DNA from: Dehalococcoidia bacterium
Lineage (GTDB): Bacteria; Chloroflexota; Dehalococcoidia; Bin125
Reading direction: 5' to 3'
DNA: 64,000 nt
NCBI GenBank assembly: GCA_022828105.1
Contig: JAJEJC010000001.1
Location: 174,090 to 238,089, forward strand
Shown: in pieces, positions 14 to 60,469 of the stretch
Layout: each line of letters opens with the position of its first letter
Numbering within the stretch: the first letter of the stretch is position 1
The notes under the pieces: model-generated
Databases searched by the model: none
The model's input: the letters and a program-made list of their open reading frames with translations, nothing else
Told to the model about the DNA's origin: nothing
Made by a program: the position numbers and the translations under genes

Positions 14-1096
14 ATGACGGACGACGGGCGGCTTGCGTTCTCGATCGCGGATGTGTCGGGCAAGGGCGTGGCTTCGGCGCTGATGATGGCGGTCGGCCGC
101 GCAGTCTTGCGCAGCGCGGCGAATCAACATCCCGATCCCAGCGAGGCGATCGCCTCGACCAACGATCAGCTGTGCTCGATGAATCCGAAGGAACTGTTCA
201 TCACGGCGTTCTTCGGAGTGATCGACCTGCGGCTCGGCACGTTGACTTATGTCAATGCCGGGCACGATCCGCCTTACATCATGAACTCGAACGGGAAGCC
301 GGAGATGATTCCGCACACCGGGGGGATCGCACTCGGCGTGCTGCCCGGGCTGTCTTACGCGGAGACCACGTTGCCGCTCGATCCCGACGTCACGCTGTTC
401 CTCTACACCGACGGCATCACGGAAGCGGAGGACGCGGCAGGGCGACAGTTTGGACGCGAACGGCTTGAGGACAAACTGACCGAGTTTGCTTCCGAAGCGC
501 CGCAAGCACTGATGGCCGACATCCTGCAGGACCTGGCGGACTTCCGGGGCGATGCGAAGCAGTTCGACGACATTACCTGCATGGCGTTGCAGTTCAACGG
601 CGGCGAGGCGTCGCTCGACTCGTACATTCCGGGTCAGGGCGATGCAAGGCTGGCGTCGGGCTGGCGCCGGATGGTTGTGCAGCCGTCGCTGGATACCTCG
701 CTGCCGAGGGTCGCGGCGTTCATCGAGCGGTTCGCGGAGTCGGAGGGCTTTGATGCGACGGAAGTGTTCCGGCTGAATCTGGCGCTCGACGAGCTGCTGA
801 CCAACACGCTGGAGCACGGGTTCCCGGACCAGACGGAAGATGCGGAGATCACGGTCGCGCTGCGCAGCGAAGGCGATGTGGTCGTGGCACGCTACGAGGA
901 CAACGGTCCGGAGTTCAATCCGCTGGAGGCGGCAGAGCAGGACACTGAACTGGAACTTGATGAACGGCCGATCGGCGGTCTGGGGTTGCAGCTGATTGTG
1001 GCGTCGTTCGATGCAGTAAGCTATGAACGTGTCAATGACCGCAACGTCACTACGCTGAAACAGCGGAGGATGAGCGCGAGCGAGGACAGCGAGTAG
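14..1096 (+). CDS. PP2C/SpoIIE-type Ser phosphatase domain (C-terminal half visible) fused to an RsbW-like HATPase_c anti-sigma-factor kinase domain; the 5' end is cut by the window edge.
   Basis: SIADVSGKGVASALMM and DGITEAED are PP2C/SpoIIE motifs. The C-terminal EVFRLNLALDELLTNTLEHGF region looks like an RsbW/SpoIIAB-type HATPase N-box. The ORF runs to the window start. Confidence 0.75.
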   Translation: MTDDGRLAFSIADVSGKGVASALMMAVGRAVLRSAANQHPDPSEAIASTNDQLCSMNPKELFITAFFGVIDLRLGTLTYVNAGHDPPYIMNSNGKPEMIPHTGGIALGVLPGLSYAETTLPLDPDVTLFLYTDGITEAEDAAGRQFGRERLEDKLTEFASEAPQALMADILQDLADFRGDAKQFDDITCMALQFNGGEASLDSYIPGQGDARLASGWRRMVVQPSLDTSLPRVAAFIERFAESEGFDATEVFRLNLALDELLTNTLEHGFPDQTEDAEITVALRSEGDVVVARYEDNGPEFNPLEAAEQDTELELDERPIGGLGLQLIVASFDAVSYERVNDRNVTTLKQRRMSASEDSE

Positions 1097-1137
1097 GTTC
1101 GCCAGCGAATCTGCAAGCGCCGCAAAGGAGTTGCCCG

Positions 1138-1585: not shown

Positions 1586-3022
1586 TTAGAGGCCGAGGTC
1601 GGACTCCAGCTTGGCGATTGCGCGGGAGATGCGGTTGACGAGTTCGTCGGCCTCTTCCAGGTTGGTGGTCAGCGGCGGGGCGAAGGGGATAGCTGCGCCG
1701 CCCCTGGCGAGGACGCCTTCGTCGCGCAGGTACTGGGTGACCCGAGCCTGCACGTTGTCGGCCTCGTCAAAGTCCTCGCCGCTGGCGGGGTCCTTCTTCA
1801 GCTCGATGACCTGCATCAGCCCGATGCCTCGGGTGTGGTGAATGGTGCGGTGCTGCTCGCGCAACTGGACGAGTCGCGAGCGGACGTGCTCGCCGACGCG
1901 GGCGGAGTTCTCGACCAGACCCTCGCGCTCGATGATGTTGAGGTTGCCCAGGGCGACGGCGCAGGAGACGGGGTTGGCGCCCCAGGTGATGCCGCCGATC
2001 GTACCGTCCTTGCCGGCCTCCTCGAAGGTGCGGGCGATGTTGTCGTTGACCAGTGTGGCGGCAATCGGCGAGTAGCCGGAAGAAATCTGCTTGGCAGTGG
2101 TCATGATGTCAGGCTCGACGTCGAAGTGGTCCATGCCGAACCACTTGCCAGTGCGGCCGAAGCCGTTGATCACTTCGTCGGCGATCAGCACGATGTCGTG
2201 CTTGTCGCAGATCTCACGCAGCGTCTGCCAGTACTTCTTGTCGGGGACCCAACTACCATTGGCGGTCGAGATCGGCTCGGCGATCATGGCGGCGACAGTG
2301 CCGGGGCCGGCTGCCATGATCGTGTCCTCGATGGTGCGGGCGCAGAAGACGTCGCAGTCGGGGAAGGTCTTCTCGTAGGGGCAGCGGTCGCAGTTGACGT
2401 TGGGCACGTGGATCGAGCCAGGCACGAGCGGTTCGTAAGGCGCGCGCATGGAGTAGGCGGCGGCGTTGACCGAGAGCGCACCGGCGGTCTGACCGTGGTA
2501 GGAGCCAATCCGCGAGATGACCTTGAACTTCTCGCCGTTGCCGCGGATGTGGTGGTAGTGCTTGGCGATCTTGAGCGCGTTCTCGACGGCTTCGGAGCCT
2601 CCGTTGACGAAGACGGCCTTGCGGATCGTCGAGGGCGTCAGTTCGAAGAGCTTGGACGCGAGCGCGACCGCCGGCTCGGAGGCGTAGGCGAAGGTGTTCT
2701 GGTACGCGAGGTTCGACATCTGCTCATGGGCGATGTCGGCCAGTTCGGTGCGGCCGTGTCCGACGGCGTTGAGCCAGAGTCCCGACATGGCGTCGATGTA
2801 CTCGCGACCCTGGTCGTCGTGGAGGAAGATGCCCTCGCCCTTGCGGATCACCAGCAGGCCGTCATCGGCGGCAAGGTCGGCGTAGGACTGGGTCGGGATC
2901 CAGAGGTGCTCCAGAGATTGCTGTCGGAGTTCCGTATTTGTCTGCGTGGTCATGCAAGGTCCTGTCGTGCCATGTGTTGTCAGGACAGGATAGGCGCAAT
3001 GCCGCGGCGATGGGGCGGTCAA
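1586..3022 (-). CDS. Class III (omega) pyridoxal-phosphate aminotransferase.
   Basis: LIADEVINGFGRTGKWFG and DIMTTAKQISSGY carry the PLP-lysine region of the AT-III family. An alternative ATG at 2953 (MTTQTNTEL) would give the usual ~455 aa. Confidence 0.85.
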   Translation of the reverse strand: MTAPSPRHCAYPVLTTHGTTGPCMTTQTNTELRQQSLEHLWIPTQSYADLAADDGLLVIRKGEGIFLHDDQGREYIDAMSGLWLNAVGHGRTELADIAHEQMSNLAYQNTFAYASEPAVALASKLFELTPSTIRKAVFVNGGSEAVENALKIAKHYHHIRGNGEKFKVISRIGSYHGQTAGALSVNAAAYSMRAPYEPLVPGSIHVPNVNCDRCPYEKTFPDCDVFCARTIEDTIMAAGPGTVAAMIAEPISTANGSWVPDKKYWQTLREICDKHDIVLIADEVINGFGRTGKWFGMDHFDVEPDIMTTAKQISSGYSPIAATLVNDNIARTFEEAGKDGTIGGITWGANPVSCAVALGNLNIIEREGLVENSARVGEHVRSRLVQLREQHRTIHHTRGIGLMQVIELKKDPASGEDFDEADNVQARVTQYLRDEGVLARGGAAIPFAPPLTTNLEEADELVNRISRAIAKLESDLGL

Positions 3023-3624
3023 CGTTGGGCGGAGGTTGGGGCGCCTCGGGCTCGGAGGTCGTAGGCCATGATGACGAGATCGCGGAGCCGGCCGCTGCGG
3101 TCCATGACCCAGCCGGGCAACGTGGCGACCGCCTGGAAGCCGAGCGACTCGAAGACGGCCTGGGCGCTGTGTTGATCGTGGGTCATGCGCGCGGAGATGC
3201 GCTCGAGACCAATCGAGTCGGCGATCGCGAAGATCTCTTCGGCGAGGAAGCGACCCAGGCCCTGACCGCGGATTTGCGAGTTGACGGTGACGCGAATCTC
3301 GCCGATGTGCTCGGTCCAGCCGGCCTCGTTGTGGACCAGCGAGGCCTCGCCGACGATGTCACCGCTGTCGACGGCGAGCACGGTGCTGGTGCGGTGTTCG
3401 GCGATGTTCTCGAGCCAGCGGTCGACGACGCTTTCGTCGGTGATGTCCCAGGGCAGGTAGAGCAGATCGTCGCGGGAGAGCGAGCGGGCGAAGGCGAGGA
3501 ATCTCGACTTGTCGGCCTCACTCATCAGGCGCATGTCGATCTCGCGGCCGCCGCGCAGGGTGGCGCGGCTGGGGTATCGCCGCGCGATCAGGGCGGCTTG
3601 GCGGGCGGATGCTTCGGTGGTCAT
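3019..3624 (-). CDS. GNAT family N-acetyltransferase.
   Basis: RGQGLGRFLAEEIFAIADSIGLERI is the acetyl-CoA-binding motif A of the GNAT fold. Confidence 0.8.
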   Translation of the reverse strand: MTTEASARQAALIARRYPSRATLRGGREIDMRLMSEADKSRFLAFARSLSRDDLLYLPWDITDESVVDRWLENIAEHRTSTVLAVDSGDIVGEASLVHNEAGWTEHIGEIRVTVNSQIRGQGLGRFLAEEIFAIADSIGLERISARMTHDQHSAQAVFESLGFQAVATLPGWVMDRSGRLRDLVIMAYDLRARGAPTSAQR

Positions 3625-4322: not shown

Positions 4323-4360
4323 GCTTCCGCGATTGGCACGAGTCTAGGGCTTGCTGCGCG

Positions 4361-4478
4361 GGGGGAGAGGGGAGCCCCCCTCTGCCTTCGGCATCTCCCC
4401 CCGCTTCGCGGGGGGAGAGGGGAAGATGCGCTCGGCATTCCACGTGCTGCGCGGGGGGAGAAGGGATCAGCTGCGCCA
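4361..4478. repeat. Palindromic G/C-rich repeat element, copy A (core 4384-4433 with extra GCGCGGGGGGAGAGGGGA arms).
   Basis: The core reads cccccctctgccttcggcatctccccccgcttcgcggggggagaggggaag. It holds an 11-bp perfect hairpin tctccccccgc/ttc/gcggggggaga plus AGAGGGG/CCCCTCT pairing. Confidence 0.8.
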
Positions 4479-6130: not shown

Positions 6131-6190
6131 TGGGGAACCCCCCTCTGCCTTCGGCATCTCCCCCCGCTTGCGCGGGGGGAGAGGGGAGAC
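6131..6190. repeat. Palindromic G/C-rich repeat element, copy B.
   Basis: gggaacccccctctgccttcggcatctccccccgcttgcgcggggggagaggggag. Same family and same orientation as copy A. Confidence 0.8.
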
Positions 6191-15425: not shown

Positions 15426-15483
15426 GGGGCAGCCCCCCTCTGCCTTCGGCATCTCCCCCCGCTGCGCGGGGGGAGAGGGGAAC
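15426..15483. repeat. Palindromic G/C-rich repeat element, copy C.
   Basis: gcagcccccctctgccttcggcatctccccccgctgcgcggggggagaggggaac, between convergent gene ends. Confidence 0.8.
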
Positions 15484-18133: not shown

Positions 18134-19498
18134 ATGTCATCAAATTCTTGGACGGACCGGCGCGCTGCCGTTGGCTCACGGCTGCTGATCGTCTTGCTCG
18201 TCGCCGGCTCGCTCGTATTGAGCGGCTGCGGCCTATTCGGCGGCGACGACGAGACGCCGAGCGTGGTCGAGCCGCCCGAGTCGGTAACCCAGACCGAGCA
18301 GCAGGACAGCTCGGCCGCGGGAACCGTGAGCGAAGTCGACGACGAGCGAGAGCAGCCGTCCGATGCGGTGCGGGTCACGACCTCGCCCGACCAGGAGTCC
18401 GAAGCAGAGCAAGAAACGCAGGCCGCCCAGCCGCAGCAAGAAGAGACCGACCGCAGCGTGTACGTGGTGCAGGCGGGCGACACGCTGGCCGACATCGCCG
18501 ACCGACTCGGCGTCCGGCTGGACGATCTGATCACGCTCAACGGGATTCAGAACCCCGACCGAATCAGCGTGGGCCAGGTACTGCAGGTGCCGGTCACGGA
18601 AGAGTCGGATGGAGGCGGCGAGACCGGCGTCGATGACGCGGAAGAAGCGCAGCAGTCCCAGGAGTCGGACGAAGAGGACGATCCGCAGGTCGAGCCGCCG
18701 GCGGTGACCTTGCCGACCGTGGCAGTGCCGGCGGCGACGCCGACCCGGGTCTCGTACACCCAGTTCCCGCAGCCGGGATCGGATGAGACGAGCGAGACGA
18801 TCCCCAGTCCTCCGGCCAACTTCCTGCAGTACGGAGCGGCCGCATTGCCCTGGCTGCACGGAATCGCCGAGGTCACGCCAATCATCGAGCTGTTCAAGGC
18901 CTGGCCGATGCCGCAGCTCGCGGTCGGCAGCGACCGCGTCGTGTTGGTCGACACGGGCGGTTTCGGCAGTTTCTCCGTCTCAATCGTCTACACCGACCCC
19001 AACTCTTTCGGCGCGGCGGTGCCGTTCTCGAACCTTGTGGTCTACGACCCGGTGCCCGGCAGCGCATCTCGATACCGCATCGCCTATGACCATGTGCAGG
19101 CCTACGCCCGCGAGGTGCAGGGCATTCAACAACTCTCGGACCTCGATCTGTCGGGCGACGGCATCCGCGACCTGACGTTCCGCGAGATCACCTGCGACGA
19201 GACGGGCTGCGTCAGCAGCTTCTACATCCTGTCGGCCGTTGGCGACGGCTACCAGACGATCACCGGCTCGGCAGCGCAGGTGGCGGAGGTCTCGAACATT
19301 GCGATCGAGGATCGGACCGGCGACGGCGTGTTGGACCTCGTGGTCAGCGGTCTGGCGACGGACGAGTCGGCGCCGGTGCGCTACACCTTCGTGTTTGCAA
19401 CGCGAGGCGTCGACCTCGTTGAGGCGTTGCGCGTCTCTGCCGATGGCGGGACCGAGGCGTCAGCGGACGATGACGACTCGGGCGAACTGGGAGAATAG
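18134..19498 (+). CDS. LysM-domain lipoprotein with an acidic low-complexity linker.
   Basis: Signal peptide plus lipobox LVLSGC. LysM is YVVQAGDTLADIADRLGVRLDDLITLNG. MSSNSW at 18134 is the likely start rather than 18056. Confidence 0.7.
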   Translation: MSSNSWTDRRAAVGSRLLIVLLVAGSLVLSGCGLFGGDDETPSVVEPPESVTQTEQQDSSAAGTVSEVDDEREQPSDAVRVTTSPDQESEAEQETQAAQPQQEETDRSVYVVQAGDTLADIADRLGVRLDDLITLNGIQNPDRISVGQVLQVPVTEESDGGGETGVDDAEEAQQSQESDEEDDPQVEPPAVTLPTVAVPAATPTRVSYTQFPQPGSDETSETIPSPPANFLQYGAAALPWLHGIAEVTPIIELFKAWPMPQLAVGSDRVVLVDTGGFGSFSVSIVYTDPNSFGAAVPFSNLVVYDPVPGSASRYRIAYDHVQAYAREVQGIQQLSDLDLSGDGIRDLTFREITCDETGCVSSFYILSAVGDGYQTITGSAAQVAEVSNIAIEDRTGDGVLDLVVSGLATDESAPVRYTFVFATRGVDLVEALRVSADGGTEASADDDDSGELGE

Positions 19499-22940: not shown

Positions 22941-22997
22941 CGCCCCCCCTCTGTCGCTACGCGACATCTCCCCCCGCATCGCGGGGGGAGAGGGAAG
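22941..22997. repeat. Palindromic G/C-rich repeat element, copy D (diverged centre).
   Basis: gcgccccccctctgtcgctacgcgacatctccccccgcatcgcggggggagagggaag, between convergent genes. Confidence 0.75.
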
Positions 22998-26469: not shown

Positions 26470-27366
26470 TCAGTCGGCCGGCCAGCCGAGCGCTGAGGCG
26501 ACCTCAGAGGCGGCGCGGGCAAAGTTCATGGTGTAGATGTGCAGGCCGGGCGCACCGAGTTCAAGCAACTCGCGGCCCAACTCGACCGCGGTCTCGACGC
26601 CGATTTCGCGGCGCTCGGCCTGACTCGACGCACGCTCCAGGCGGTCGTGGATTCCGGACGGAAACTCGGTGCCGTTGAGCGCCGACATGCGCTCGACGCT
26701 TGCCACGTTGGTTGGCGGCATGATCCCGGCGATCACCGGGGTCCGCACCCCGCGCGCATCGAGCTGGCTGACGAACTGCTCGTAGTACTCGGTGCGGTAG
26801 AAGAACTGCGTAATGGCGAAGTCGGCCTGGGCGAGCTTTGTCGACTGATGCGCGAGGTCGGCCTCGACCGACGCCGCCATCGGATGGCCTTCGGGATGTG
26901 CGGCGACGCCGATATCCCAGTCGGCCCGCTCGCGGATGAAGCGGGCGAGTTCGGCGGCGGCGTCGAAGGCAGGGGACCCCCCCTCAGCCTTCGGCAGCTC
27001 CCCCCCTCTGGGGGGGAGCGAAGAAGAGGGGAGCGGAGCGTCGCCGCGGAGGGCGAGGATGTTGGCGATGCCGTCGGACTGGTAGTCGCGGACAATTGCG
27101 GCGACTTCGTCACGCGTGTGGGCGACGCAGGTCAGGTGCGGCATCGCCTCGACGGCGAAGTCCTCGCGGATGGCGCGGACCCAGTCGCGAGTCGGACCGC
27201 GAGTGGCGCCGCCGGCGCCGTACGTGACGGACATGAACTGCGGTCGGTGTGCGGCAAGCCGGGCGAGGGTCTGCCTCAGGCGCTCGGCGCCTTCCTCGTC
27301 GCGCGGGGCGGAAAACTCGAACGACAGCGTTTGGCCCGCATCCAGCAACTGCGAGATGCGGGCCAT
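26470..27366 (-). CDS. metF: 5,10-methylenetetrahydrofolate reductase MetF carrying an in-frame repeat-element insertion.
   Basis: QFMSVTYGAGG, NILALRGD and ITQFFY match the MetF family. Relative to E. coli MetF an extra ~16 aa (PSSSLPPRGGELPKAE) is encoded by repeat copy E. Confidence 0.85.
   Translation of the reverse strand: MARISQLLDAGQTLSFEFSAPRDEEGAERLRQTLARLAAHRPQFMSVTYGAGGATRGPTRDWVRAIREDFAVEAMPHLTCVAHTRDEVAAIVRDYQSDGIANILALRGDAPLPSSSLPPRGGELPKAEGGSPAFDAAAELARFIRERADWDIGVAAHPEGHPMAASVEADLAHQSTKLAQADFAITQFFYRTEYYEQFVSQLDARGVRTPVIAGIMPPTNVASVERMSALNGTEFPSGIHDRLERASSQAERREIGVETAVELGRELLELGAPGLHIYTMNFARAASEVASALGWPAD
26971..27036. repeat. Palindromic G/C-rich repeat element, copy E, located inside the metF coding sequence in frame.
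   Basis: aggggacccccctcagccttcggcagctccccccctctgggggggagcgaagaagaggggag. It translates on the minus strand as PLPSSSLPPRGGELPKAEGGSP. Confidence 0.75.
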
Positions 27367-27396
27367 TACGAGTTACTCCACTCCGCGGCCTTGGGC

Positions 27397-27460
27397 CGCC
27401 CCCCTTCAGTCACTCCGCGGCAGCTTCCCCCCGCAGGGGGGAAGCGAAGAGGGAGGGAGG
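27397..27460. repeat. Palindromic G/C-rich repeat element, copy F (same subfamily as E).
   Basis: ccgccccccttcagtcactccgcggcagcttccccccgcagggggggaagcgaagagggaggg, 30 bp upstream of the metF start. Confidence 0.75.
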
Positions 27461-27469
27461 AGGGTGGAA

Positions 27470-27853
27470 CTAGATGCAGGAGCGGGCCTGGGACGCGCCT
27501 TCGCCGCCGGCCGTGTCGAAGCTCGAACCGCAGGCGCAGGAGTGCGACGCGTTGGGATTCGAGATCGAGAAGCCCTGCTTCATCACGTCGTCGATGTAGT
27601 CGACGCGCGATCCGGCGATCAGCGGCGCGGATTCCTCGTCGACGAGGAAGCGGACGCCGTTCTTCTCGATCACCTGGTCGCCGGCTTCGGCGTCGGTGGC
27701 GAGGGCCATGCCGTACTGGTAACCGGAGCAGCCGCCACCGACCACGAAGACGCGCAGCGCGCCCTCGGCGAAGCCCTTGTCGACCAGCAGGGTCTTGGCC
27801 TTCTCGGCAGCCAGGTCGGTGACATCCAGCATTTCAGTCATCTGAAAGACCAT
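27470..27853 (-). CDS. HesB/IscA/ErpA-family iron-sulfur cluster insertion protein.
   Basis: FVVGGGCSGYQYG and the C-terminal NPNASHSCACGSSF carry the three conserved Cys. GAGAGGA ribosome-binding site before the ATG at 27853. Confidence 0.8.
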   Translation of the reverse strand: MVFQMTEMLDVTDLAAEKAKTLLVDKGFAEGALRVFVVGGGCSGYQYGMALATDAEAGDQVIEKNGVRFLVDEESAPLIAGSRVDYIDDVMKQGFSISNPNASHSCACGSSFDTAGGEGASQARSCI

Positions 27854-27943
27854 CGCGAGCGTCCTCTCAATGGATCGAGTACATGAGCAAGCATAGCGCA
27901 CCTGGCGGATCATCGTGCATCGCGAGCGACGCAGGCAGGGGCG

Positions 27944-27966
27944 GGCAAGCGGGTTCCTGCGTGAAG
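27944..27966. terminator. Hairpin repeat copy 3: TTCCTGC-GTGAA-GCAGGAA, downstream of nuoI.
   Basis: Perfect 7-bp stem with the same GTGAA loop as the copies at 1.5 kb. Confidence 0.4.
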
Positions 27967-27985
27967 CAGGAACTTGGGCGGCTGT

Positions 27986-49927: not shown

Positions 49928-49981
49928 TTCCAGCCTCGGACGCCAGAGGGAGCGGGTCCCTGGGCAAGCCAGGGACTGGGA

Positions 49982-51136
49982 CTAGAGCGCGTCGGAACCG
50001 TTTTGGCGGATGTGGCGGGCGACCGTGAGTCGCAGCAGCTCGGTTGGCCCCTCGGCGATCCTGAGCGAACGACTCCAGCGGTAGAGACGCTCCAGCGGGT
50101 GGCCTCGCAGGAGCGCCTGGGCTCCGTGCAACTGGATGGCTCGGTCCACGCTGCGATGCAGGCATTCGGACGCCAGCCACTTGGCGGCGGCGACCTGCGT
50201 GCCGGCGGTCGACTCGTCGGACTCTCTCGCCTCTGCGGCCCGGTAGAGCGCGGCGCGGGCGGCGAAGCTGTCCGCCGCGATGTCGGCGAAGATCGCCTGC
50301 ACCTGCTGCTGCTCGGCGAGCGGCTGTCCGCTGCGGTGCGGACCCTCGATCCGCTCCAGCGTCGCCCGCGCGACCCAGCGCGTCCAGCCGACGCAATCGG
50401 CGGCGACACCGAGTCTCATCCGATCGATGTTCTGCATGGCCCGCGGCATACCGTCGCCGACGTTGCCCAGCAGTCTCGAATCGGGAACGGGTACGGCGTC
50501 AAAGTAAAACGGCGAGTGCGTGCTGCCGTCGATCGATGCGCCCAGTTCGCCCTCGGTGACCCCCGGCGCTTCGCGGTCGACGACGAGCAGCGCCGTGCCT
50601 TCATCGGGCACGTTGGCGACCACGACGAGCCAGTCGGAGTCTGCGCCGCCGGTGACGAATCCCTTGGCCCCGCTGACGAGGAAGCCGTCGGAACCGTCCG
50701 CCAGGGTTGTGCGGATCGCTTCGGTCGGCGCGCGGCGGCCGTCGGTTCGCAGCGCTTCGGTGAAGGCGAAGGCGGCGCGGCGCTCGCCGCGGACGACCGG
50801 TTCGTACAGCGCTTCACGCTGGGCGGGGTTGTCGGCCAGCCGCATGATGCCGGGTCCGGCGCCGAGCGCGGCGGAGGCGAAGGCATTGCCGCTCAGGGCA
50901 AGCGCCTCACGCGCCGCGGTCAGCAGCCGAGGTCCGCCGCCGAGTCCACCATCGGATTCGGGCAGCGCCAGCCGATAGAAGCCGGCGGCCTCGGAGCGCC
51001 GCGCAATCTCGCGCCGCAGCTCCGGCGGCGGCGCTTCCGGGTCGACGCCGCTGGTGATCGGGTCGATCTGCTCGGTCACGAACTGGAGCAGGCGCGATTG
51101 CAAGTCGGACAGGTCGGGAGTCAACTCAAACTGCAT
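49982..51136 (-). CDS. Acyl-CoA dehydrogenase family protein.
   Basis: ACAD N, middle and C domains, with a C-terminal QLHGAQALLRGHPLERLYRW. Confidence 0.85.
   Translation of the reverse strand: MQFELTPDLSDLQSRLLQFVTEQIDPITSGVDPEAPPPELRREIARRSEAAGFYRLALPESDGGLGGGPRLLTAAREALALSGNAFASAALGAGPGIMRLADNPAQREALYEPVVRGERRAAFAFTEALRTDGRRAPTEAIRTTLADGSDGFLVSGAKGFVTGGADSDWLVVVANVPDEGTALLVVDREAPGVTEGELGASIDGSTHSPFYFDAVPVPDSRLLGNVGDGMPRAMQNIDRMRLGVAADCVGWTRWVARATLERIEGPHRSGQPLAEQQQVQAIFADIAADSFAARAALYRAAEARESDESTAGTQVAAAKWLASECLHRSVDRAIQLHGAQALLRGHPLERLYRWSRSLRIAEGPTELLRLTVARHIRQNGSDAL

Positions 51137-60392: not shown

Positions 60393-60469
<77 letters not shown>

Follow-up and report, generated by a model that had tools for sequence, protein, structure and literature searches.

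A Palindromic Repeat Copy within the metF Coding Sequence of a Dehalococcoidia Bacterium

A Repeat Copy in the Coding Sequence of metF

We analysed a stretch of 64,000 nucleotides (nt) from a Dehalococcoidia bacterium (Chloroflexota; assembly GCA_022828105.1, contig JAJEJC010000001.1, positions 174,090 to 238,089 of the forward strand), hereafter the window, and found that metF, the gene for methylenetetrahydrofolate reductase (MTHFR), carries within its coding sequence one copy of a short G/C-rich palindromic repeat, named copy E. This copy is a member of a dispersed repeat family, the reading frame of metF is preserved across it, and it is absent from sister orthologues. It comprises 69 nt, or 23 codons (APLPSSSLPPRGGELPKAEGGSP), at 26971..27039 on the minus strand, as delimited by codon comparison over 12 loci, by pairwise DNA alignments and by the copy at 26972-27027 returned by repeat finding. 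The exact 26-nt core of the family (CCCCCTCAGCCTTCGGCAGCTCCCCC on the plus strand) matches at 26979..27004, and the repeat is translated from 27039 to 26971, with the peptide PLPSSSLPPRGGELPKAEGGSP encoded by 27036..26971 in the metF frame. On the evidence as a whole, copy E is very probably a repeat unit that has become metF coding sequence; most likely it is tolerated as a nearly neutral passenger, and its allele would have spread by recombination.

An earlier note on this DNA, made from its letters, had placed a repeat copy in frame within metF and had mapped the extra residues onto it. Both claims hold, since the stretch in which the alleles differ is the repeat in the codon and DNA alignments alike. 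A protein search of 5.8 billion sequences yielded 120 close MetF clusters, of which 39 were aligned (alignment A2), and the loop in question was tabulated for all 120. Between the invariant RGD and AFD(T/A)AAEL motifs, the loop has 10-11 residues almost everywhere (LPQGxxxxxQ or LPxGSDELPSG), and repeat-like long loops are confined to nine clusters (P0001, P0002, P0005, P0006, P0007, P0009, P0010, P0013, and P0017). P0003, with 93% protein identity and the same gene neighbourhood, reads GD-LPQGAELPPQ-AFDT and lacks the insert, and the segment in which the two differ falls on the repeat. The window protein has 298 amino acids (aa) and the closest insert-less orthologues have 285, a difference of 13 aa. 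The excess of about 16 aa previously given for this segment is also what a hand count returns against what we take to be the E. coli MetF sequence, but it does not apply to the closest orthologues.

We compared the DNA of 12 alleles that share a common neighbourhood consisting of an Fe-S biosynthesis gene, metF, and a conserved run of downstream genes. Between the GAC codon (Asp) and GCN-TTC, there are 30 nt in the insert-less (empty) alleles, as opposed to 69 nt in the insert-bearing (filled) alleles of the window, L004, L007, and L009. The repeat is thus within metF as proposed, but it is not a clean insertion: the 69 nt stand in place of the native 30-nt loop (LPQGAELPPQ in insert-less orthologues), with a net gain of 39 nt and 13 aa. 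The sister pair L004 (filled) and L006 (empty) has 97.1% identical metF DNA, with flanks identical over ~95 and 75 nt, and the pair L009 (filled) and L010 (empty) has 95.8%; both pairs differ essentially only in the loop. The window (filled) and L003 (empty) are 91.2% identical in metF DNA.

These comparisons bear on the reading that nothing was inserted and that a native, lineage-specific G/C-rich loop resembles the repeats through codon bias. High-GC genomes do yield Pro/Gly-rich loops, and some distant orthologues have GGELP-like native loops (LPSGGGELP; P0086 and P0103). However, the exact 26-nt core is common to more than 150 copies, it adjoins a hairpin with the covarying closing triplet of the family, both are shared with intergenic copies, no such matches occur in shuffled sequence, and the segment is missing from sisters with 91-97% identity. 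The objection from codon bias, which the earlier note had raised against itself, therefore fails, and we give this reading practically no weight.

The metF Coding Sequence Is Intact

The metF coding sequence (26470..27366, minus strand) is intact in the list of open reading frames (ORFs), and its product of 298 aa matches the MTHFR profile of Pfam (PF02219) over its full length, with residues 4-294 covering profile positions 2-287 of 287 (E 4.7e-74; 249.7 bits against a cut-off of 24). The nearest solved structures are those from T. thermophilus (1v93/3apy) and E. coli (1zp3). Alignment A2 has 121 invariant columns across the 39 orthologues including the window protein, which keeps all invariant MTHFR positions. 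The filled allele was assembled by two pipelines, as an ENA scaffold and as a Logan contig, and the related filled alleles L004 and L011 sit on 3.1-Mb chromosome records, whose contig names suggest long-read assemblies. Since two pipelines agree and filled relatives lie on chromosome records, the insert is not an assembly artefact.

We saw no stop codon in any frame of the element that was read, so that a host ORF stays open after any length change divisible by three. Copies of the family were found in open frames of all six kinds, and three ORFs in different frames cross the repeat site in metF. This property, together with a possible second metF outside the window, would favour the reading that the gene is inactivated or dispensable, a pseudogene in the making whose open frame is incidental. 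Against it stand the retention of every invariant position, the full-length Pfam match, a structural model that is confident outside the loop, and a filled allele that, with synteny conserved, has stayed intact in nine orthologue clusters. Such a pseudogene is very improbable.

The Repeat Occupies Loop L4

The insert begins immediately after Asp109 and takes the place of the variable distal part of loop L4. The RGD motif at the head of L4 contains the invariant catalytic Asp, Asp109, whose codon lies at 27040..27042 on the minus strand; this residue is invariant in the 39 orthologues and pairs with Asp109 of T. thermophilus MTHFR, against which the window MetF aligns with 10 gap positions. This residue (Asp120 in E. 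coli, Asp109 in T. thermophilus) is catalytically essential and begins loop L4, whose open and closed states influence folate binding and whose conformation shifts in catalysis (PMC9900621). Accordingly, of the idea that the repeat sits in a surface loop, the loop stands, but the site is not an arbitrary one, being the loop that bears the catalytic Asp (PMC9900621).

With alignment A2 as input, AlphaFold2 gave a model whose mean predicted local distance difference test score (pLDDT) is 85. For residues 110-129 the score is below 50, and they are modelled as an unstructured coil between the strand 102-106 and the helix 137-145. The insert is thus predicted to be a disordered extension of L4 that leaves the barrel unaffected. 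The insert shares with the known MTHFRs a loop whose first residue is the invariant catalytic Asp and which alternates between an open and a closed state (PMC9900621); in contrast, the solved bacterial MTHFRs have a short L4, and none of the solved structures has such an extension. Because the enzyme core appears untouched in the model, the insert is most likely a nearly neutral passenger of selfish or junk DNA instead of a functional module.

The Repeat Family in the Window

Six copies of the family, A-F, lie in the window, all co-oriented when aligned on the plus strand. Repeat finding grouped five of them as one family (family D1), and the sixth was recognised by its hairpin at 27427-27441. 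Five of the six lie between ORFs, and copy E alone lies within metF. Copies A (4369..4424) and B (6132..6187) are intergenic and copy C (15427..15482) lies between convergent ORFs, all three located by repeat finding and alignment. Copy D (22942..22997), also between convergent ORFs, belongs to a subfamily with a long hairpin 1 and has a same-site copy in L003. Copy F (27394..27456), of a subfamily with a longer hairpin 1, occupies the spacer between the metF start and the stop, at 27470, of the flanking ORF (27470..27913; Pfam Fe-S_biosyn). The exact core CCCCCTCWGCCTKCGGCAKCTCCCCC is present in copies A, B, C, and E, with D and F as the long hairpin-1 variants.

Chance expectations in the window were obtained from dinucleotide-preserving shuffles. 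The pattern CCCCCCN{3,9}GGGGGG has seven matches, two of which overlap at copy E to leave six sites, against 0.06 expected, so that the density of six copies in 64 kb is far above the expectation for the hairpin pattern. A 31-mer specific to copies E and F was observed twice, against 0.00 expected in 100 shuffles. The G-run of copy F ends at 27399, 32 nt before the ATG at 27366-27364, which bears out the claim of a second copy just upstream of the metF start. Both copies said to bracket the 5' third of metF are thus present, but we saw no sign of joint action, and the upstream copy in L004 and L007 is from a different family.

The unit measures ~45-70 nt and is G/C-rich, with two hairpins and a third G-run. 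In metF sense, a C/T-rich 5' extension is followed by hairpin 2, (G/T)CT-C5-7, a loop and G5-7-AG(C/A), then by hairpin 1, TGCC-GAA-GGC(T/A), and a 3' GAG-G5-7. In copy E, hairpin 2 (GCTCCCCCCC-AGA-GGGGGGGAGC; 26997..27019, minus strand) has a 10-bp stem and a 3-nt loop in both the sequence and the RNA fold. Read with its closing triplets it is GCT-C7-AGA-G7-AGC, and it accompanies the C..T subtype of the core, the two forms of which are described below. The small hairpin 1 (GCC-GAA-GGC in mRNA sense; 26987-26995) lies within the 26-nt core. The outer complementarity of the element is 7-9 nt, the terminal complementarity is short (CCCCTCT/AGAGGGG), and UUCCCCUCU and AGAGGGGGG are paired when copy C is folded.

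Four complete units from copies A, C, and E fold at -38 to -43 kcal/mol on either strand, with z-scores that are modest owing to composition, and copy F folds at -35.5 kcal/mol. The mRNA strand of copy E, with its hairpin-2 stem, reaches -42.8 kcal/mol. This energy, a palindrome kept intact in five lineages, a site adjoining the catalytic Asp on a loop with catalysis-relevant open and closed states (PMC9900621), and a filled allele that persists or spreads across lineages just 78% identical could be taken to mean that the insert was co-opted, either as an mRNA hairpin slowing or regulating metF translation or as a flexible L4 lid tuning substrate binding, and kept by selection. However, the fold energy of copy E is ordinary for its composition (z = -1.56), the peptide is predicted to be disordered, the majority of close relatives do without the insert, some versions are decayed or have lost parts (P0009, P0013, and L012), and the element is found mainly between genes and also within unrelated proteins. 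We regard co-option as improbable.

Copy A sits in a composite locus (4355-4466) where the block CGCGGGGGGAGAGGGGA occurs three times (CGCGGGGGGAGA(G/A)GGGA; ~4355, 4408, and 4447), an arrangement suggestive of partial duplication, or of slippage between parts of the repeats. At the gathering threshold, a tRNA was all that Rfam recognised in the window (60396-60469, minus strand), and Rfam returned nothing at the element in eight loci from other phyla at E<=1.

Origin and Proposed Spread of the metF Insert

In the history that we favour, one unit would have entered metF and replaced the variable distal part of L4 directly behind Asp109, and the stop-free element with its net change of 39 nt would have let the gene stay open, so that a Pro/Gly/Ser-rich disordered loop of 23 residues is translated in place of an ancestral loop of 10. 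A possible reconstruction places a 51-nt element in LPQGAESPTQ, where the Thr codon meets the final Gln codon, and adds a deletion of 12 nt. The insert may have arisen once or very few times within this Dehalococcoidia group, after which filled and empty alleles would have been shuffled among lineages by homologous recombination and partial deletions would have given the shorter derivatives.

When the loop is masked, the tree scatters the nine insert-bearing clusters, each beside insert-less sisters. The filled alleles nevertheless resemble one another closely: those of the window, L004, L007, and L009 all measure 69 nt and are in the same register, and the complete unit of L005 matches them codon for codon. 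Among the alleles with DNA read, a hairpin 2 of 7C/3-nt/7G is present in the window, L004, L005, L007, and L009 and not in L011 or L012; it is absent from all other C-type copies in the 1.2 Mb of loci sampled, the typical form being 5C/5-nt/5G. The type-I alleles L005, L007, and L009 also share the 5' stretch CCRCAAYCCACN, which lies outside the element and occurs nowhere else in the sampled loci. By hand count, ~93% of the 69 nt agree between the alleles of L007 and L009, although their genes have just 78% identity. Furthermore, the pairs L007|L008 and L012|L013 lose their sister relation in one or both 60-nt flanks of the loop, mosaics as expected for recombination patches. The shortened loops of P0009, P0013, and L012 look like decay products.

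Several observations weigh against this history. L011 has a different subfamily at the metF site (long hairpin 1, 90 nt) and L005 holds ~1.6 tandem units, so that a strict single origin would have to be supplemented, for instance by slippage, by gene conversion from other copies or by a second insertion. The flanks of L004 and L006 are perfectly identical, with no recombination tract visible. The native loop DNA CTGCCGCAGGC of L006 equals 11 nt in the hairpin-1 region of the element, a match that could mark a homology-guided hot spot, and the similarity among inserts could in part reflect hairpin constraint and not recent common origin. Neutrality, too, is an assumption, since L4 changes conformation in catalysis (PMC9900621).

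Part of this evidence, namely the scatter of the insert-bearing sequences among insert-less sisters, the intact flanks of L004 and L006, the subfamily of L011, and the 11 nt shared by native loops and the element, would also be accounted for if L4 were a true insertion hot spot that received at least eight independent insertions, guided by the similarity of the native loop to hairpin 1 or by the target preference of a mobilising enzyme. The metF copy of the window, L009, and L011 moreover resembles the intergenic copy ~330-400 nt upstream. Against a hot spot, the sequenced filled alleles except L011 and the decayed L012 have the unique 7C/3/7G hairpin in common and can be aligned codon for codon, four of them at exactly 69 nt; the type-I alleles agree in flanking sequence outside the element; mosaic flanks are seen in two sister pairs; and there is no general local donor, the upstream intergenic copy of L004 and L007 being in a different repeat family. 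We consider a hot spot rather unlikely. One or few insertions followed by spread of the allele through recombination is the course we hold somewhat more probable than its alternatives taken together, and the single-origin part of it is drawn from 12 alleles.

Two further candidates were rejected. Seeding of copy E by the upstream copy F as a local donor fits the window, L009, and L011 but fails generally, for the reason just given for L004 and L007. Formation of the empty alleles by deletion of the insert is ruled out, since a deletion between CTGCCGCAR repeats would not restore LPQGxxxxxQ, a loop that also matches the outgroups.

The spacer between the Fe-S biosynthesis gene and metF is occupied by repeats in 11 of the 12 alleles examined, the spacer of L003 lying partly beyond the scaffold end. 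It holds a copy of the studied family in the window, L003, L009, L010, and L011. Another family, CCCCTCTCCCTCCGGGAGAGGG followed by GGGTGAGGG blocks, is present there in L004 (9890-10000), L006 (9900-10000), L007 and L008 (9900-10000), and L013 (9910-10000).

The Family Core across Phyla

The element family is not limited to the Dehalococcoidia lineage. A scan for the 26-nt core in one genome per GTDB species returned at least 116 stretches, and the taxonomic range given here is a lower bound; by a back-of-envelope estimate, a pattern of 23+3 positions would match ~0.002 times by chance in 1.2e12 positions of uniform composition. Among the matches listed, most lie in metagenome-assembled genomes (MAGs) of Dehalococcoidia or Chloroflexota, including chromosomes that bear the metF relatives. 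Their names and their expanded families of CoA-transferase and monooxygenase paralogues suggest that many of these Chloroflexota hosts are sponge symbionts. The exact core is also present in Pasteurellaceae (Aggregatibacter, Haemophilus, Actinobacillus, and Glaesserella), Dialister (Negativicutes), a Clostridia MAG, several families of Bacteroidota, and an Abditibacteriales MAG, giving at least five phyla overall. The copies outside Chloroflexota stand in low-GC surroundings, and some of those genomes have several. Example sites, from loci L014-L129, are L026 1540-1565, L048 4079-4104, L097 1772-1797, L118 2291-2316, and L119 180-205 and 295-320.

Two variable positions of the core are fully linked in 154 unique copies, of which 111 read GAG-A-TGCCGMAGGC-A-GAG (A..A) and 43 read GAG-C-TGCCGMAGGC-T-GAG (C..T), and none is recombinant. 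Hairpin 2 covaries with the subtype in its closing pair, TCT/AGA (84 copies) going with A..A and GCT/AGC (38 copies) with C..T, with one exception. This linkage holds inside and outside Chloroflexota, and both subtypes occur in several phyla. As the linked pair in the core is not Watson-Crick, stem stability alone does not account for the linkage. We tentatively suggest, at less than even confidence, that the metF insert may exemplify a mobile mini-element, so far undescribed, that passes between phyla and is repeatedly translated inside conserved enzymes.

Copies within Other Genes

Insertion in frame is a property of the family, as it is of the Rickettsia palindromic elements (RPEs), though most copies are intergenic. 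In a Flavobacteriaceae MAG with 35% GC, the core at L042 2451-2476 lies within an MnmE ORF (1986-3407, minus strand) that reads YMFD-APSAFGISPQGGE-FNKV. The protein has the TrmE_N, MnmE_helical, and MMR_HSR1 domains, and, relative to the solved MnmE 3gee, APSAFGISPQGGE represents residues added to the G domain. Aequorivita nionensis, whose genome is complete, has the core in frame at L049 747-772 within a small-domain (MTS) methyltransferase (392-1132, minus strand), just after the NPPF motif (NPPFY-SPPLPSASPPKGEK-IISTSRE). In two Chloroflexi MAGs, a copy at L093 2877-2902 (minus strand) separates, in frame, the PD40 propeller of one protein from its Peptidase_S9 domain, and a copy at L066 3809-3834 (minus strand) provides a stop-free, element-derived linker between two CoA_transf_3 domains in an open frame of 889 aa, which reflects a fusion of genes or else an overlooked stop. 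When a 65-aa composite of four reading frames served as the protein query for other hosts, no scorable candidate was returned.

In addition, genes for DUF559 (Vsr-like endonuclease) proteins end in or just before the element at L026 1538-1996 (minus strand), L048 3717-4106 (plus strand), and L119 296-760 (minus strand). The core stands at such 3' ends in Aggregatibacter, Haemophilus, and the Abditibacteriales MAG, with another G-rich element just upstream in L026, and in Pasteurellaceae the tail PLSLRQLPP is coded by the element. The link is local, and the DUF559 endonuclease was rejected as a general autonomous partner, as just five of 120 homologues have an element-coded tail (P0123-P0127; the only named source is Rodentibacter, Pasteurellaceae).

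Neighbouring Repeats and Genes

A second, unrelated hairpin repeat family, D4 (GGGCAAGCGGGTTCCTGCGTGAAGCAGGAACTTGGGC), has copies in the window at 1496-1532, 1540-1576, 27943-27979, and 49946-49982, and one of these copies is found immediately upstream of the Fe-S biosynthesis gene that neighbours metF. In L010, a tandem duplication of 137 nt bounded by copies of the studied element (18328-18500) is missing in the 96%-identical sister L009 (18396-18420) and looks like a repeat-mediated intergenic rearrangement. Upstream of metF, two to three genes for putative endonucleases of the Uma2 family (PF05685) are present in L001 (3378-6647), L009 (14-3689), and L012 (4650-6661); they are adjacent in L012 and partly so in other relatives. 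Restriction-modification genes at the same upstream position vary among strains and form a variable island beside the conserved metF block.

Comparison with Known Repeat Systems

RPEs, reportedly described by Ogata et al. in 2000, resemble the present element in being dispersed palindromic repeats that are intergenic as well as in frame within conserved housekeeping genes, where the host ORF stays open, the extra peptide is translated, and insert-free orthologues exist. RPEs are ~150 bp and lie in frame within genes (PMC10969869). The comparison with RPEs drawn in the earlier note holds for this behaviour (PMC10969869), which the element displays in metF, MnmE, the MTS methyltransferase, and the S9 peptidase; intragenic repetitive extragenic palindromes (REPs) are known in many other species too (PMC3733652). 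However, compared by description, the element falls outside the RPE family in length and host: RPEs belong to Rickettsia and relatives, whereas the window element is 45-70 nt, is extremely G/C-rich, has a Chloroflexota host, and has its exact 26-nt core in at least five phyla. The insert also differs in replacing a native loop beside a catalytic residue.

Intragenic REPs of the GTAG/CGTC super-families have been reported in many species (Di Nocera et al. 2013, PMC3733652). These are likewise short stem-loop repeats, mostly 3' of genes, with a minority wholly in ORFs that adds 20-30 residues, and such inserts are often recognised by shorter homologues in related strains. In contrast, copy E has two hairpins and a third G-run instead of a single tagged palindrome, and, read by eye, the GTAG/CGTC tags that define these super-families (PMC3733652) are absent from both strands of 26971-27039. 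Some long hairpin-1 copies carry CGTAGCG, but in the loop and not as a terminal tag. No gene for a REP-associated tyrosine transposase (RAYT) or another tyrosine transposase was found near the sampled copies by ORF clustering in genome pieces of 8-20 kb, and in the same pieces the recurrent neighbour families were common metabolic paralogues and DUF559, with no transposase.

ERIC, BOX, and the MITEs of Anabaena (miniature transposable elements with inverted repeats) form in-frame fusions (PMC10969869), and the present element is similarly a small non-autonomous repeat able to add in-frame segments to host proteins. It differs from MITEs in size (45-70 nt against the usual 70-300 bp), in its outer complementarity of 7-9 nt where terminal repeats of 15-30 bp would be expected, and in that no parent insertion sequence was identified. 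At metF there is no target-site duplication, the filled and empty alleles showing replacement with no duplicated flank, and five sister-locus alignments contained no clean presence/absence indels between genes. "REP/MITE-like" is thus a description of behaviour and not a family assignment.

A phage-borne element is ruled out by a total of three matches in 2.9 million viral contigs. A BLAST search of plasmids with a 44-nt consensus gave no match, possibly because of the low-complexity filter. The sequence strings of the element occur in no indexed paper, and keyword searches for Chloroflexi or sponge repeats gave nothing specific. The earlier remark that no description of in-frame behaviour was known for this family agrees with our literature search, which found no prior description of the family.

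Implications

Our knowledge of in-frame palindromic repeats comes mostly from Rickettsia and a few proteobacteria. Such repeats are one of the few routes by which selfish DNA can add peptide to housekeeping enzymes, and their existence is already established for RPEs, REPs, ERIC, and some MITEs (PMC10969869, PMC3733652). What goes beyond the known pattern here is the position beside a catalytic residue, the apparent exchange of filled and empty alleles among close lineages, and the two-subtype core found across phyla. In this uncultured Dehalococcoidia lineage, filled and empty alleles with 91-97% DNA identity allow the site of insertion, the history of recombination, and the decay of the insert to be read, and the site beside the catalytic residue makes its tolerance experimentally testable. 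In the annotation of MAGs, stop-free repeats of this kind will give spurious ORFs, apparent gene fusions such as that in L066, and odd loops. The cross-phylum core with its linked subtypes raises the question of what recognises or moves so small an element. If the suggestion of a mini-element that crosses phylum boundaries is true, either a host-encoded or unknown conserved factor would recognise and mobilise it, or a conserved DNA or RNA function would travel by horizontal transfer.

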